A stretch of DNA of 24,255 bases, from assembly GCA_918234285.1 (NCBI GenBank), contig CAKJXZ020000071.1, positions 1 to 24,255 on the forward strand. Direction: 5' to 3'. A model generated the notes under the pieces. That model made no database searches, was not told where the DNA came from, and saw only the letters and a list, made by a program, of their open reading frames with translations. Shown piece after piece: positions 1 through 3,255 of this stretch (its first letter is position 1; each line of letters opens with the position of its first letter). This DNA is from Pseudomonadota bacterium (lineage in GTDB: Bacteria; Pseudomonadota; Alphaproteobacteria; RF32; CAG-239). The translations under genes and the position numbers were made by a program.

Positions 1-1554
1 ATCTATAACCGTATCAAACTGCCGCGCTTTCGGCATGGTAGACATCGCGCTCTCCAACATCTGCCGATACAGCGGCAACAACGCCGGCTGTTGCGAAACA
101 ATTCCGAAAGCCTGACTGATGAGTTCGTGCACGTTTTTCAAAACCCGGAGCGTGCGTTCTTCTTCGCGTTCCACGTTGAAACAACCGTCGGTTTCCAAAT
201 CGATTATCAGACCGCGCAGTTTTTCCGCTTTCAACAGTTTGACCGCGTTGGTGGCCTTAATCATATCGGCACGTTCATCCGGATTTAAGAACGACAACAA
301 AAACGTCGGCGAAAACTGTTCGCAGATAATCTCTGCTTTTATTTTCAATAAATCCTTTAGAAAGCGCTGCATATCATTCTGTCTGTCTTGATTGCGAAGC
401 GTTCCGAAGTTGGTTTTTTGCGTTACTGCCGTTGCCGTTTCACCGATTTGCGACGAGCCGCGCATAATATCACTGACACCGGTTACCTCATAAATCGAAT
501 CAATCAGAACCTGACGTCGGCGTGCTAAAGTTTCGAGCGCCGTCACATACTGTTCTATCGGCGCAAAATCGATAATACCTTTAATACCTCCGGCCTCTTT
601 CAACTTATCGAAATCCGACAGCGAAATCAGCGTTACATCTTTATCCAGAATATTGGCCAGTTCCGGAAAACTGTTATCGTAACAGCCCGAAACTTTAAGA
701 GCCTGCATGGTCAGTCGCATCCGATTGTTGACCCCGTCCAACTCATCAAGCAAACTTTTGATTTCCACATAATCGGGCACCGGAATCATACCGTCGTTGG
801 CAAGCGTCGACATAATCGGTTTCGGGCACGGAAAGAACCCGCTTAAGTGCAAAGTATCTTCATAAACATCCAGAAAATCCGCCGGATATTCCGGGCTGTA
901 ATAATAAATCGAGCGACTCGGCTTATCCCAAATTTCGTAAACGGTGATATTGCCGACATCACCGAAGCGCGAATTCAAATATTTGGCAATTGCCGGATCA
1001 AAATTGTCATAAATCTCCGCAACCGACATATAGGTTTTGCGAGCAATCCACTCCACATCTTCCCACACATTAACGTTTTGTGTATCCATCAAAAACGCAG
1101 TCGGATTCACGTAAGTCGTGTTGACCTGCTCGCTACTTTTAAGCATTTCGTTGCCGATGGTGTAAAAACTCGGACAATATTGCTCCCACAATACCCCCAT
1201 TCCCAAAAGCAAAAAATCGTTACGAGCGTATTTGACCACACTGTCAAAATCAAATTGTTTCATATTCCAATAAAGCGCCCGCTCCAAAATTGTGGCGGCC
1301 AACAGCTGAGTTTCATCAACCGCTTTACGGCTGCGCACAATAAACGGTGTCGGTTGCTTGAAATATAGAAACGGTTTAAGGGTTTCTACCGTTGCCCAAA
1401 AAACATTTTGTTTGTTACGGCGTCGCTCATTACGGTAATATCCGCGAATTTCGGATACCAAATCATAATAATCGGCATATTTTTTTTCGGCGGCGGAAAT
1501 TTTCCGTTGCCAAGCATCTCGCAATTCCTTGCGAGACAAATTTTCTTGTATCAT
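1..1554 (-). CDS. Phage portal (head-tail connector) protein, P22/podovirus-like; 3' end outside the window
   Basis: Absent from the ORF track because it has no stop in the window. Hand translation from ATG 1554 (AAGGAG RBS at 1566-1561) is open for 518 codons: MIQENLSRKELRDAWQRKI...NVFWATVETLKP...VYEIWDK...GFFPCPKP...IPVPDY...ALKVSGCYD...IYEVTGVSDIMRG...ETATA. These motifs match large podovirus-type portals as I recall them. Confidence 0.85.
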   Translation of the reverse strand, partial: MIQENLSRKELRDAWQRKISAAEKKYADYYDLVSEIRGYYRNERRRNKQNVFWATVETLKPFLYFKQPTPFIVRSRKAVDETQLLAATILERALYWNMKQFDFDSVVKYARNDFLLLGMGVLWEQYCPSFYTIGNEMLKSSEQVNTTYVNPTAFLMDTQNVNVWEDVEWIARKTYMSVAEIYDNFDPAIAKYLNSRFGDVGNITVYEIWDKPSRSIYYYSPEYPADFLDVYEDTLHLSGFFPCPKPIMSTLANDGMIPVPDYVEIKSLLDELDGVNNRMRLTMQALKVSGCYDNSFPELANILDKDVTLISLSDFDKLKEAGGIKGIIDFAPIEQYVTALETLARRRQVLIDSIYEVTGVSDIMRGSSQIGETATAVTQKTNFGTLRNQDRQNDMQRFLKDLLKIKAEIICEQFSPTFLLSFLNPDERADMIKATNAVKLLKAEKLRGLIIDLETDGCFNVEREEERTLRVLKNVHELISQAFGIVSQQPALLPLYRQMLESAMSTMPKARQFDTVID

Positions 1555-1581
1555 TTATTTCTCCTTAATAAAAAATTAGAA

Positions 1582-1833
1582 TCAAACCGATTCGTTGACG
1601 ATTCCCAAAATACTTTTTTCACGAATCGCCACGACATCTTTTTGCGCCAAAGGCAAATCATCAAAATAATGAAAAATAATTTCGTCGCCGACCTTTATTC
1701 CGGAAACATCCGGCCCCACGCTTAAAACCACACCCCGATTGCGATATCGGCTTTCCTCACGGATAATCGGCGATTTATCGTTAGTATTGCATAGTCTTAC
1801 AATAACTCGATCCATAATTGCCCGATACATCAT
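1582..1833 (-). CDS. GroES/Cpn10-like co-chaperonin, phage-type, with no groEL partner
   Basis: DRVIVR...RGVVLSVGP...IKVGDEIIF...IREKSILGIV follows the Cpn10 pattern. GGAG at 1842-1839 favours ATG 1833 (or 1830) over GTG 1839. Confidence 0.8.
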   Translation of the reverse strand: MMYRAIMDRVIVRLCNTNDKSPIIREESRYRNRGVVLSVGPDVSGIKVGDEIIFHYFDDLPLAQKDVVAIREKSILGIVNESV

Positions 1834-1844
1834 TTTCACTCCAT

Positions 1845-1875
1845 AAAAAAAGGAGACTGAGCAAACTCAATCTCC
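1845..1875 (-). terminator. Intrinsic terminator in the leader upstream of the GroES-like/portal genes
   Basis: Minus-strand RNA GGAGAUUGAG-UUUG-CUCAGUCUCC-UUUUUUU: a 10-bp stem with one G.U pair (fully paired only on this strand) followed by U7. Confidence 0.85.
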
Positions 1876-1913
1876 GCTGTTTTTTATTTTTTCTTAACAC
1901 AATTATCGATTAT

Positions 1914-1928
1914 GATAATTTTCTTATC
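1914..1928. promoter_or_regulatory. Operator-like palindrome GATAA-GAAAA-TTATC (read on minus) over the late -10/+1 region
   Basis: 5-bp arms; the 13-bp core ATAAGAAAATTAT is identical to 2472-2484. Confidence 0.5.
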
Positions 1929-1949
1929 ACATTAGTCACTAAATGTCAA
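1921..1949 (-). promoter_or_regulatory. Putative sigma70 late promoter
   Basis: TTGACA (1949-1944, overlapping the upstream TGA stop), 17-nt spacer ending TGA, then TAAGAA (1926-1921). The -10 lacks the -7T, which is common in alphaproteobacterial promoters. Confidence 0.55.
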
Positions 1950-2446
1950 GAACTTTTTTTATTTTTTTGCAAATAATATTTGAGCAATCTCTCCAAACCA
2001 AGGCATAGAAACATTTTCAGACAATAATATTTATTTTTTGTTTTTAAAGAATTATCGTTTTTTTCTTCAAATTGATCTATTCTCATGTCTTCTATACACA
2101 CTTTATAAACCGTCGGCCAAAACTCATAAGGAACATTTTTGACGGCTCGAAAATATCTTTCTTTGTAGTACATAGCTGTATCCTCTCCTACATTTCCGGT
2201 TGTTCTTATACCCAGCTTAAAGAGCTTGCTAGATTGCAGCTTATTATAATTTCCTAAGTAGTAATCTCTCGCTAATATTTCTCCTGCCATTTTTCTTTGT
2301 TCCGCCGTAAACGGGCTCCCGCTCAAATCGAGACACCCTTCCTCACAATACTTCTCCAAAACCGTCTTTTTGCGCCACCTTCCGTTTTTATCCAAAACAT
2401 ATCCGCGTCTTTTTGCTGTTGCTTCCGACATTCCGTTATGTACCAT
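1946..2446 (-). CDS. DUF6456 (GafA C-terminal/GafZ-like) transcription regulator, putative Q-like antiterminator
   Basis: TVLEKY...GSPFTAEQRKMAGEILARDY...YKERYFRAVKNVP...VYKVCIED...KMFLCLGLERLLKYY parallels the GafA C-terminal pattern as I recall it (PFL...AAGERLREDF...RCCC...KIVLRIALxRLxxHY). GGGAGGA RBS at 2459-2453. Confidence 0.75.
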   Translation of the reverse strand: MVHNGMSEATAKRRGYVLDKNGRWRKKTVLEKYCEEGCLDLSGSPFTAEQRKMAGEILARDYYLGNYNKLQSSKLFKLGIRTTGNVGEDTAMYYKERYFRAVKNVPYEFWPTVYKVCIEDMRIDQFEEKNDNSLKTKNKYYCLKMFLCLGLERLLKYYLQKNKKSS

Positions 2447-2466
2447 TTATCATCCTCCCATATATG

Positions 2467-2495
2467 GATTTATAAGAAAATTATAATTAAGTCAA
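2467..2495 (-). promoter_or_regulatory. Putative promoter of the DUF6456 gene
   Basis: TTGACT (2495-2490), 17 nt, TAAATC; the context is very AT-rich. Confidence 0.4.
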
Positions 2496-2508
2496 TAAGA
2501 AAAATATC
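2471..2508. promoter_or_regulatory. Tandem operator-like sites TATAA-GAAAA-TTATA and AATAA-GAAAA-ATATC
   Basis: Two copies 23 bp apart (2471-2485, 2494-2508) between the divergent regulators; both match 1914-1928. Confidence 0.5.
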
Positions 2509-2510
2509 GT

Positions 2511-2539
2511 TTTACTTTCTAAGATATATATTATATAAT
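2511..2539 (+). promoter_or_regulatory. Putative sigma70 promoter of the repressor gene
   Basis: TTTACT, 17 nt, TATAAT; GAGG RBS at 2560-2563. Confidence 0.6.
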
Positions 2540-2569
2540 GTAGGAGTCGAACATCATTTGAGGTAAGTT

Positions 2570-3013
2570 ATGGAAAACACGGAAGAAATTCGCAAAAAAA
2601 TATCCCGACTAATTTTGGAACGCGGTTTGAATTATGCACAGGTATCGTTGGCAATAGGCAAAAATATTGCCTATATTCAACAATATATTAAAAACGGCTC
2701 GCCGCGTCGTCTGGGAGAAGTCGAGCGTCATAAATTGGCGCAAATTCTTCATGTTGACGAGCAGGAATTAACCGACTTACCGCTCAATGTTGCCACTTAT
2801 TCGGCTGCCACCATTAATTCGGAAGTATTGAGTTTGGTTATCGAAAACATCGAAACCTGGCTCAGCAAGCGCAATATCTCTCTGGAGCCGCACGATAAAG
2901 CTGAATTGATTAAATTGATTTACATCAAAGTCTGCGGCGATTCGCTTGATGTTGCTGCCGGCAAAGTTAAAGACTTTATAGAAATATATAACGAATTACG
3001 CAAGGCCAACTGA
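2570..3013 (+). CDS. XRE/cI-like HTH transcriptional repressor without an S24 peptidase domain
   Basis: The N-terminus RLILERGLNYAQVSLAIGKNIAYIQQYIKNGSPRRLGEVERHKLAQILHVDEQEL matches the HTH of alphaproteobacterial phage-repressor-like proteins. The C-terminus looks helical (LEPHDKAELIKLIY) with no GDSM/Ser-Lys motif. Confidence 0.8.
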   Translation: MENTEEIRKKISRLILERGLNYAQVSLAIGKNIAYIQQYIKNGSPRRLGEVERHKLAQILHVDEQELTDLPLNVATYSAATINSEVLSLVIENIETWLSKRNISLEPHDKAELIKLIYIKVCGDSLDVAAGKVKDFIEIYNELRKAN

Positions 3014-3033
3014 TTAGCAACATCGGACTTAAT

Positions 3034-3255
3034 ATGACGGATATCGAGCAACAAATCAAAGATATATTAGCAAAAAGCTATCCGGCTAACGATAATTTGA
3101 CGGCAACACCGCAATTGACTGATAGCCATCCTTCAACGCTCACTCACAGTGTCAGTGTGGTTGGCAACAATAATGTAGTAATCGCAGCCAACGCGCTGAC
3201 TCTAGGTCTGTTTACATTACTTTACATTTGCGGATTAATTTTCTCAACGCACTGA
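3034..3255 (+). CDS. Small hypothetical protein with a C-terminal transmembrane helix
   Basis: Starts 20 bp after the repressor and fills the gap to priA; PANDN and VVGNNNVVI motifs; hydrophobic tail ALTLGLFTLLYICGLIF. Confidence 0.6.
   Translation: MTDIEQQIKDILAKSYPANDNLTATPQLTDSHPSTLTHSVSVVGNNNVVIAANALTLGLFTLLYICGLIFSTH

Follow-up and report, generated by a model that had tools for sequence, protein, structure and literature searches.

Does a phage-type switch and portal gene lying beside the host gene priA belong to a gene transfer agent (GTA), to a prophage or to the remains of one? Only a handful of GTA lineages are known, and they are hard to separate from dead prophages by sequence alone. 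The window analysed here is one entire contig of 24,255 nt, and the genes in question fill its positions 1-3255. Its host genus comprises gut and rumen Alphaproteobacteria known only from genome bins of uncultured organisms. Our best explanation is that positions 1-3255 probably form the regulatory head of a particle cluster of ~18 kb, derived from a phage and inherited vertically, that is, a GTA-like 'viriform' of podovirus ancestry governed by antitermination of the GafZ/Q type. Vertical inheritance and the lack of phage replication and integration genes make the cluster a strong candidate for a GTA of a new kind. No published description of it was found in the literature.

All features listed by the original prediction were found at their positions within 1-3255: an HTH repressor gene, a divergent DUF6456-like gene, a promoter, a terminator, a GroES-like gene and the portal gene, with priA adjoining. 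The same arrangement was found at 43 related loci, and it is therefore not a product of chance. The gene for priA (3258..5435, minus strand; Pfam PriA domains) is host flank and lies outside the element. Its stop codon, at 3258, is two bases past a small ORF of 73 aa with a hydrophobic C-terminus (3034..3255, plus strand), the last gene before priA. This ORF, on the same strand as the repressor gene, had no family match in Pfam and PHROG profile searches; homologues with 32-77% identity are in place in most class A loci.

The repressor (2570..3013, plus strand) has 147 aa. Over its first 75 aa it shares 45% identity with the HTH end of the cI/S24 repressors that related elements carry, and its match to Pfam HTH_3 is weak (E 0.041). 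The Peptidase_S24 domain was present in all three class B repressors scanned and absent from the window protein and both class A orthologues scanned. A cI/LexA-type S24 identity was rejected, because the HTH end is homologous but the self-cleaving C-terminal domain is missing. All 40 class A repressor ORFs measure 146-191 aa, and the dN/dS of the gene is 0.019. Between the repressor and DUF6456-like genes lies a divergent promoter with a predicted operator region (2447..2569). Alignment across 22 loci showed ~90 nearly invariant nucleotides here, with three copies of a TCTTA motif and a TTGAC -35 element for the DUF6456-like gene.

The DUF6456-like protein (1946..2446, minus strand, 166 aa) is proposed to act as a late antiterminator resembling GafZ and Q. 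Its PF20057 score of 20.5 bits is below the cut-off of 26.3, which counts against the GTA-like reading. Among its orthologues, 21 of 34 match PF20057 at E<=0.01 (best 9.7e-8), and some database relatives carry a precomputed PF20057 label. The gene is the sole PF20057 match in its own genome; in 14 control genomes, matches occurred only in Caulobacter. GafA relatives carry the DUF6456 annotation (PMC9638019), and GafZ is described as an antiterminator with a sigma-like HTH and a binding site between -35 and -10 (PMC11150451). An AF2 model of the window protein (pLDDT 81.7) had no significant fold match in the PDB, the top hit being sigma-28 (E 0.85, TM 0.34), and this too counts against the GTA-like reading. 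The dN/dS of the gene is 0.17.

In the late promoter (1919..1949, minus strand), a TTGACA at 1949-1944 that overlaps the DUF6456-like stop codon is separated by a 17-nt spacer from TGnTAAGAA. In an alignment of 25 loci, TTGACA was invariant, and GTnAC in the spacer and the TGnTAAGAA -10 element were conserved. The exact pattern had 47 matches in 36 of the 50 genomes of the genus, versus one for a reversed control. Between this promoter and the first late gene is an intrinsic leader terminator (1852..1875, minus strand; a 10-pair stem and T7). A hairpin with a T-tract occupies this position in 41 of 41 class A loci, and the stem sequences differ while the hairpin is kept, which indicates covariation. 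A further hairpin lies 3' of the capsid gene in 22 of 26 loci. This architecture, a promoter with a conserved element between -35 and -10 and then a terminator, is present and conserved, and promoter, operators and terminators are kept across species whose synonymous sites are saturated.

Downstream, the GroES-like co-chaperonin gene (1582..1839, minus strand) opens the late operon. It passed the Cpn10 threshold (PF00166, 25.2 bits versus 21.1), matched phrog_3188 (5.2e-10) and preceded the portal gene in 80 of 80 related loci. The window holds the first 518 codons of the portal gene (1..1554, minus strand; phrog_12082, E 5.6e-106), and these N-terminal 518 aa had no Pfam family match. The gene runs on in frame into contig C66, which overlaps the window by 9 nt and supplies the last 72 codons, giving 587 aa in total; contigs from two runs of another study bridge the junction. 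The isolated phages closest to this portal are Mx8 and Brucella podophages, at 28-29% identity.

Annotation of the DNA left of the window, on C66 and C37, extended the element to an operon of ~18 kb, with all ORFs intact and on one strand across the joined contigs. C66 carries the rest of the portal gene, fibre genes, a BppU_N protein, a Peptidase_S74 spike, a Hydrolase_2 endolysin and a Terminase_3 large terminase subunit (TerL). A scaffold, a capsid (phrog_9953), tail proteins (phrog_6013 and phrog_5107), a GNAT protein and a virion protein were read from the homologues in a related genome, G003 (locus L089), to which C37 genes are 42-75% identical. With the GroES-like protein, a holin-like protein and short-tail proteins also among the late products, phage-derived head, portal, terminase, tail and lysis functions are all encoded in the cluster. 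The claim that terminase and lysis genes are lacking holds between switch and portal but fails downstream, since both are present past the portal on C66; the window being a whole contig, that claim applied to the switch-portal stretch.

No integrase, replication or recombination genes were found in the ~18 kb cluster (window, C66 and C37), which includes several small ORFs with no function assigned. From priA to the host genes on the other side, G003 has no phage lifestyle genes except a small serine invertase, and no direct repeat of at least 11 nt links its two borders. A PF00589 integrase was not found near the element in four relatives (G001, G002, G003 and G005); the right end in the window's own genome lies beyond the joined contigs. 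An integrated temperate prophage was rejected on these grounds, with contig C16 of the same genome as a positive contrast. C16 holds a related prophage with a cI-S24 repressor, primase, RecE/RecT, a RusA-like protein and an integrase, and it was found again as a 34.2 kb viral contig in IMG/VR. Genomes of related true phages run to ~30-35 kb and keep the canonical gene order. A second portal, 54-56% identical, occurs in two of the 50 genomes of the genus (G000 and G216), and a full prophage was confirmed for C16 of G000.

The element is inherited vertically with the host clade and kept by purifying selection. The conserved single-copy presence foreseen in relatives was borne out: a portal with at least 68% identity is present in 47 of the 49 other genomes of the genus, as a single match in 46 of them, with the 54%-identical second portal in G216. 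The two genomes that lack one have completeness values of 83% and 81%. Class A portals form one clade (support 100). Host-congruent phylogeny was likewise found, the portal tree and the unlinked RpoB tree of 31 genomes having 18 of 28 splits in common (random labelling: mean 0.25, maximum 4). The Mantel r was 0.826, a value reached in 0 of 5000 permutations. Between the window and locus L010, dS was 0.44-0.56 for the portal, TerL, capsid, endolysin, DUF6456 and HTH genes and 0.45-0.58 for host genes; that of the GroES-like gene was 0.14. As predicted, dN/dS is far below 1, at ~0.03-0.06 for element genes as for host genes (medians: portal 0.029, TerL 0.048, capsid 0.039, endolysin 0.062; priA 0.032, mutS 0.035). 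Gene content, single copy, congruent phylogeny and low dN/dS together support the idea of a phage cut down to its switch and virion genes and retained by the host. GC3 and codon use had no discriminating power, which counts against the GTA-like reading.

Purifying selection by itself cannot tell a GTA from an active phage, and the same data, namely a conserved, intact element without replication and integration genes, would also fit a grounded, defective prophage that is retained for some advantage other than gene transfer. It might make PBSX-like killer particles or release cell contents through lysis, with DNA packaging as a by-product. The fibre and spike genes, the most variable part of the element (56-86% identity between genomes whose remaining element genes are 89-99% identical), suit this explanation, as do paralogous muramidase-domain genes with small hydrophobic ORFs, one of these genes standing behind a copy of the late promoter. 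However, the portal, TerL, scaffold and capsid genes are selected as strongly as host genes, which argues that filled heads matter, and there was no sign of toxin cargo among the findings. We consider this explanation rather unlikely.

An active small temperate phage, using host functions for replication and an unrecognised integration route with a target site near priA, has little probability. Several observations point towards it. priA is the left neighbour at 31 of the 37 related loci with a readable left flank, and other host genes adjoin the repressor at the remaining six. The right flank varies between species, and a small serine recombinase is present at the right end in two of five relatives examined. 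These three features all count against the GTA-like reading. Compact related elements also occur in six more genera of the family; their left flanks differ among seven genomes of genus g9, and one of them has 99.5% identity to a 17 kb human faecal scaffold that was deposited as 'Bacteriophage sp.'. Against an active phage stand the portal/RpoB congruence, the equal dS of element and host genes, the single portal match in 46 of 49 other genomes (two in G216), the lack of an att-like repeat in G003 and of a tyrosine integrase nearby in the four relatives searched. In addition, class A is represented in IMG/VR only by fragments of 6.5-8.2 kb, and full-length viral contigs with early genes come only from other lineages. 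A decaying, functionless cryptic remnant, to which the scrambled gene order relative to related phages and the missing early genes might point, is very improbable and already contradicted by the lack of stop codons in 48 portals of the genus and in 27-43 orthologues each of TerL, capsid, endolysin, GroES and HTH, by dN/dS values of 0.02-0.06 and by the conservation of the regulatory DNA.

For the GTA-like cluster, the following mechanism is proposed. The HTH repressor would keep the divergent DUF6456 gene off until some signal relieves it; because the S24 domain is gone, this signal would not be RecA-driven self-cleavage. The DUF6456 protein then made would load onto RNA polymerase at the late promoter, the one overlapping the stop codon of its gene, and let the enzyme read through the leader terminator and the internal hairpins. 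Read-through would express one long operon: GroES-like protein, portal, fibres and spike, holin-like protein, endolysin, small and large terminase, scaffold, capsid and short tail. Promoter and leader copies lie after host genes at two other chromosomal loci (on contigs C24 and C69), and second-site copies occur in 10 other genomes; such copies would drive further cassettes. The particles would be filled with host DNA by headful packaging, freed by lysis and could deliver this DNA to recipients. Classical GTAs cannot carry their own cluster. Since the related phages have ~30-35 kb, the 18 kb cluster would fit in the head if head size was kept, which counts against the GTA-like reading: packaged pieces too small for the whole cluster are a GTA trait that this element may lack.

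The proposed switch resembles that of phage lambda, in which the Q gene lies directly upstream of the strong promoter PR', followed by the close terminator tR' and then the virion and lysis operon. The order of regulator gene, promoter, terminator and virion/lysis operon is the same here, but no resemblance of the DUF6456-like protein to Q proteins was found in sequence or, at a significant level, in fold. The same lineage includes temperate podophages (C16 and its 34.2 kb IMG/VR counterpart; more distantly, Mx8 and Brucella Tb-type phages). They have homologues of the TerL, GroES-like, portal, scaffold, capsid, tail and fibre genes at 30-70% identity, and some have a DUF6456 gene upstream of TerL. 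Unlike the cluster, they have a cI-S24 repressor, primase, RecET, a resolvase and an integrase, in genomes of ~30-35 kb with canonical order.

With RcGTA and CcGTA, the element shares a chromosomal head-tail-terminase cluster of ~15-18 kb that lacks replication and integration genes and is inherited with the host. It also shares a regulator in or near DUF6456, the annotation given to GafA relatives (PMC9638019), with PF20057 matches in Caulobacter. A terminator to be read through and a conserved element between -35 and -10, described for the known system (PMC11150451), are predicted here from the sequence. In contrast to those GTAs, this cluster has a phrog_12082 portal, a phrog_9953 capsid with scaffold, a short tail and no tape measure. 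The cluster itself contains the regulator gene, next to that of a phage-type repressor, as well as the lysis genes, and no GafY-like partner was found for the regulator, unlike in the Caulobacter system. The RcGTA marker GTA_TIM (PF13547) was found in 0 of 50 genomes of the genus, with a positive Caulobacter control; this rules out a GTA of the RcGTA type and agrees with the predicted origin from another virion lineage.

In BaGTA of Bartonella, the capsid operon is described as controlled by a promoter, a leader terminator and the processive antiterminator BrrG (bioRxiv 10.1101/2024.11.20.624540). By that description, both are independent alphaproteobacterial domestications with antiterminator control, predicted in our case, and both have several lysis cassettes. 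Unlike BaGTA, the present element yielded no run-off replication module, and its regulator lies next to the capsid operon and shares its phage origin. FpGTA of Faecalibacterium, by its description (PMC12946183), is likewise a GTA-like element of podovirus-like form in a gut bacterium. It belongs to another host phylum, and its packaging has experimental evidence, whereas the present cluster is known from its genes.

We tentatively propose that the cluster might represent a GTA lineage of podovirus origin that arose independently, as the third in the Alphaproteobacteria, and is fixed in one uncultured gut and rumen genus. Its DUF6456 regulator would have stayed in the ancestral phage position, as a late antiterminator beside the repressor, and the late promoter would have spread to accessory cassettes, some with muramidase-domain genes. 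If true, this would imply that GafA and GafZ of the classical GTAs descend from phage late-gene antiterminators. That the DUF6456 gene lies within the cluster, with a repressor gene and a promoter-terminator leader as neighbours, bears on that question of origin and on whether processive antitermination is a common logic of GTA control. If the particles carry host DNA, they would be a podovirus-type GTA in the class with the best-studied GTAs and an added route of gene exchange in abundant uncultured gut and rumen Alphaproteobacteria. As comparative evidence this is unusually clean: ~50 species of one genus were covered, and the same genome supplies its own control in the form of a true phage relative. 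The regulatory DNA is conserved enough for the design of reporter tests. The muramidase-domain genes are several paralogues with Glyco_hydro_108 or Phage_lysozyme domains, and they are followed by the small hydrophobic ORFs.

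The window covers contig C71 in full; its source genome comprised 2.0 Mb in 71 contigs and was rated 100% complete with 2.58% contamination. The layout predicted earlier for positions 1-3255 of the window was correct, with all features found at the left end and abutting the host gene priA. On the reverse strand, a 166-aa DUF6456-like gene (2446-1946) was followed by a late promoter whose TTGACA overlaps the DUF6456 stop codon, an intrinsic terminator with a 10-pair stem (1875-1852), a GroES-like gene (1839-1582) and the first 518 codons of a portal gene (1554-1), which runs off the contig. 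Divergent from the DUF6456 gene, the forward strand encoded a 147-aa HTH protein (2570-3013) and a 73-aa small ORF (3034-3255), ending 2 bases before the priA stop codon. A MazG-type nucleotide pyrophosphohydrolase gene (5437-5850) lay between priA and mutS, and this priA-mazG-mutS trio was a conserved left flank in relatives.

The late promoter was almost invariant across the genus (TTGACA, a spacer with GTnAC, then TGnTAAGAA). In relatives sharing the window's gene order (class A), a hairpin (-9.4 to -18.9 kcal/mol) with a T-tract was found ~60-90 nt past the DUF6456 stop codon in all 41 loci examined. It immediately preceded the GroES-like gene in 40 of them; in the remaining locus, L045, the gap was 548 nt. 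The stems varied in sequence from species to species, which indicates that the structure is maintained by compensatory change. Another strong hairpin was located 3' of the capsid gene (22 of 26 loci). Between the repressor and DUF6456 genes, ~90 nt were almost invariant and contained the motif TCTTA three times; no CtrA-type or LexA-type box was recognised in this alignment, as judged by eye.

The DUF6456 assignment was weak for the window protein itself and firmer for its family, with 21 of 34 orthologues matching PF20057. Among 14 control genomes, PF20057 matches occurred in Caulobacter alone. A fold search with the DUF6456 model gave no PDB match at E<=0.001. A profile search of a protein collection returned 184 matches, all to close relatives and every named one a 'hypothetical protein', and thus provided no bridge to the named GafA/GafZ proteins. 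DUF6456 is given as the annotation of GafA relatives (PMC9638019). GafZ has a sigma-like HTH, binds between the -35 and -10 elements and enables polymerase passage through a terminator (PMC11150451). In BaGTA, a leader terminator is paired with an antiterminator of the Q-like kind (bioRxiv 10.1101/2024.11.20.624540). The promoter and leader terminator of the window fit this GafZ/BaGTA logic, by analogy with which the DUF6456 protein would act as an antiterminator.

The remainder of the element was located on two other contigs of the same genome, C66 and C37. The last 72 portal codons were found at the right end of C66, in frame with the window and with a 9-nt overlap, and C66 and C37 were joined by a 13-nt overlap. 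A 97%-identical relative (L010) was collinear with all three contigs, and the junction between the window and C66 was spanned by contigs from two runs of another study (X3 record 8, X4 record 14). Joining the contigs by script gave an element of ~18 kb with closely packed ORFs on a single strand. Annotation of this DNA to the left of the window, as proposed with the original prediction, recovered capsid, tail, terminase, fibre and lysis genes. After the DUF6456 gene, the GroES-like gene and the portal (587 aa) came a fibre-like protein carrying YadA_stalk and Gp10_C, then a BppU_N protein and a 597-aa spike with a Peptidase_S74 domain. A Stealth_CR2-like protein was next, followed by a holin-like protein of 75 aa and an endolysin with Hydrolase_2. 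Small genes of 111 and 92 aa preceded the large terminase TerL (Terminase_3), after which came a 72-aa gene, a scaffold protein, the capsid (phrog_9953), a 200-aa protein and the tail proteins (phrog_6013, phrog_5107). The last two genes encoded a GNAT protein and a virion protein. A strong hairpin closed the operon (C37:8593-8624). The element's own right end was not reached, as C37 stops in a multi-copy gene. None of the element's proteins was recognised as a tape measure, sheath or tube, and the nearest isolated phages by portal were the podophages Mx8 and Brucella Tb-type phages (28-29% identity). The 92-aa gene before TerL is a candidate small terminase, a lead based on its nearest named Atlas neighbours, which were small-terminase clusters (score 0.87).

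A strain-specific insertion, a 975-aa fibre-like ORF (C66:1-500 plus C37:1-2441), separated TerL from the 72-aa gene. It was missing from L010, and other species carried 1-2.5 kb of inserted DNA in this position. Spike identity was just 56-70% between genomes with 89-99% identity in the remaining element genes, indicating that the receptor-binding parts turn over fast.

The same genome also carried a paralogous gene set on contig C16 (L007, 1-20000; L008, 1-14631), with a portal 55% identical to that of the element. Its order was canonical: small terminase, TerL, GroES-like gene, portal, scaffold, capsid, tail, fibres and lysis genes. It encoded an S24-domain cI repressor, an integrase, RecE/RecT and proteins resembling a primase and the RusA resolvase, and it recurred as a 34.2 kb IMG/VR contig (L102) with 89-100% protein identity, most genes being 97-100% identical. 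These lifestyle genes and this recurrence identify C16 as a real, complete temperate phage of the element's virion lineage. The element has virion, lysis and packaging genes of the C16 type, without any of the C16 lifestyle genes. GC3 and codon-use distance did not set it apart from either host genes or the C16 prophage.

One genome per species was scanned for relatives, which gave 169 portal relatives, and the best 80 of these 169 loci were read. Class A accounted for 43 of the 80 (portal identity 67-97%), all in the same scrambled order: switch, GroES-like gene, portal, fibres, lysis genes, small genes, TerL, scaffold, capsid and tail. The other 37 (class B; portal identity 53-56%) were arranged canonically; 20 of them had a recognised cI-S24 repressor upstream, and a DUF6456 gene lay upstream of TerL in many. 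In a FastTree phylogeny of 82 rows, for which unlabelled rows of both classes had been halved beforehand, class A portals grouped in a single clade (support 100). The class A repressor had an HTH end in common with the class B cI-S24 repressors (45% over 75 aa) and a different C-terminal part, without an S24 domain. Other scrambled orders were seen at L103, L108, L112, L138, L115 and L116, for example with a tail gene before the portal and the GroES-like gene and TerL after it. Shuffled modules are thus a common feature of this phage lineage, and the window's element is not special in having them.

On the left, the class A elements were flanked by priA-mazG-mutS in 31 of 43 cases. Other host genes abutted the repressor in six (L026, L027, L030, L045, L048 and L051), five flanks were cut by contig ends and one was unreadable. 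Related records were titled uncultured Alphaproteobacteria from rumen, gut and faeces. Four class A contigs (L032, L036, L037 and L041) belonged to records whose bins were labelled Eubacteriales, Bacteroidaceae or Ruminococcus gnavus, probably through binning errors; three of the four also hold priA and mutS, 65-80% identical to the window.

The right flank varied between species. In genome G003, the virion protein was followed by two small genes, a 226-aa serine invertase and rpiB-glyA-mscL. Small serine recombinases of the DNA invertase type (Resolvase and HTH_7; phrog_125) were present at the element's right end in two of five relatives (G003, L089:7112-7792; G001, L091:12882-13460) and absent from the other three. 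In G001, the 92-aa gene and TerL were relocated to the right end, beside the invertase. The original prediction implied that integrase and att sites would be missing from the far end, which agrees with G003: no tyrosine integrase was found on the element's contig, and no word of at least 11 nt was common to both element borders. The element contig of G002 had no tyrosine integrase except for a weak 27.8-bit match ~150 kb away. In G001 and G005, the sole integrase on the element's contig was a 313-314-aa protein 20-30 kb away, which we infer from its size and score to be XerC/D.

The family search covered 282 genomes in 23 genera, and the portal was found in seven of these genera. The conserved single-copy presence expected of a host-retained element was found within the window's genus, where 47 of the 49 other genomes had the portal at >=68% identity, 46 of them as a single match. 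A second match (54-56% identity) occurred in G216 and in the window's own genome. No portal of the genus contained a stop codon, and the two genomes without a portal were 83% and 81% complete.

Portal phylogeny also followed that of the host, as had been anticipated. The portal was compared with the unlinked RpoB in 31 genomes: the window's and, from those of at least 90% completeness, the 30 whose RpoB matched best. Pairwise distances gave a Mantel r of 0.826, reached by none of 5000 permutations. The two maximum-likelihood trees had 18 of 28 internal splits in common; after label shuffling (1000 trials), the number was 0.25 on average and never exceeded 4. For the linked priA, mutS and mazG, r was 0.977 (18 taxa). 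Between the window and L010, host genes had a dS of 0.45-0.58. The portal, TerL, capsid, endolysin, DUF6456 and HTH genes were in a similar range (0.44-0.56), and the short GroES-like gene was lower (0.14).

Selection was estimated as median Nei-Gojobori dN/dS from pairs with dS 0.05 to 1.0. The expected values far below 1 were obtained for the portal (0.029), TerL (0.048) and capsid (0.039), compared with 0.032 for priA and 0.035 for mutS of the host. The endolysin (0.062) and HTH repressor (0.019) were likewise low, and DUF6456 (0.17) and the GroES-like gene (0.26) were higher. Internal stops were confined to a single DUF6456 stretch out of 43, and none was found in stretches of the other genes tested. 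The low dN/dS and the near-absence of internal stops exclude decay of the element. Purifying selection alone does not discriminate a GTA from a working phage.

Gene content and inheritance support a reading of the element as a particle cluster of podovirus origin that the host has domesticated and retained, with a putative repressor/antiterminator switch in control. In this sense it is GTA-like, as a candidate gene transfer agent. A relative of RcGTA was rejected, GTA_TIM being found in 0 of 50 genomes, in line with the different virion lineage originally proposed. The head capacity may exceed the size of the cluster itself, which would set the element apart from classical GTAs. Literature searches on GTAs (rumen, Alphaproteobacteria, RF32, podovirus, domesticated) and on DUF6456 returned no description of it.

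Compact class B elements were found in other genera (L122-L139, L052-L088), with ~13-18 kb between the outermost recognised genes, canonical order and a cI-S24 repressor. Several of these loci (e.g. L123, L125 and L129) had host genes within 1-2 kb on both sides, and early genes were not seen. In one such genus (g9), 49 of 56 genomes carried a compact element, and the seven without it were 100% complete, their absences requiring six changes when placed on the RpoB tree. In g9, the portal tree had 9 of 20 splits in common with that of RpoB (random mean 0.25, maximum 3; Mantel r 0.839), and left flanks differed among the seven g9 loci read. Long residence with some loss and replacement thus seems to extend beyond the window's genus. 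The lineage also circulates as full phages, represented by eight IMG/VR contigs of 29.5-35.4 kb, at least six with recognisable early genes, and by loci L137 and L139. A human faecal scaffold of 16,998 nt filed as 'Bacteriophage sp.' (MT835830.1, L121) was 99.5% identical over its whole length to a compact element of genus g12 (L130, G152:C35). It stops ~280 nt past the endolysin gene, without a terminal repeat, and because it starts inside the element it is not informative on packaged DNA or joined host DNA.

The late promoter, leader and terminator had two further copies in the window's own genome, each after a host gene. One (C24:76816-76969; L004, L287) lay between a phosphofructokinase gene and a 359-aa protein with a Phage_lysozyme match near the cut-off, and the other (C69:22364-22430; L005) between an M20 peptidase gene and ORFs of 66 and 191 aa. 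The exact 31-nt promoter pattern had 47 matches in 36 of 50 genus genomes, and the reversed pattern had one. Comparison of match coordinates with portal places showed 35 to be adjacent to the portal; the other 12 were second-site copies, distributed over 11 genomes (10 besides the window's own). Five second sites were read in other genomes; a variable protein followed the promoter at four (L257, L261, L267 and L269), and the fifth (L277) runs off its contig. The variable protein was followed by a small ORF with a hydrophobic start at L257, L261 and L267, and by homologues of the C69 ORFs at L269.

We tentatively read these promoter-copy genes, together with a related multi-copy family, as accessory lysis-type cassettes and a candidate dispersed regulon. 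Family members (C37:8593-8843; C36:4665-5950, L285; C50:8134-9335, L286; C24:75777-76856; C10:104479-105159, L095) had an N-terminal region in common and variable C-terminal parts, one with a Glyco_hydro_108 domain and one with a Phage_lysozyme-like domain. The palindrome GAAAACCGTGCG...CGCACGGTTTTC was present upstream and was not found at the C10 copy. The C10 and C24 copies were followed by ORFs with hydrophobic starts, as was the case on C50. On C37, one member is the next gene after the final virion gene, and its presence there explains why this contig ends where it does.
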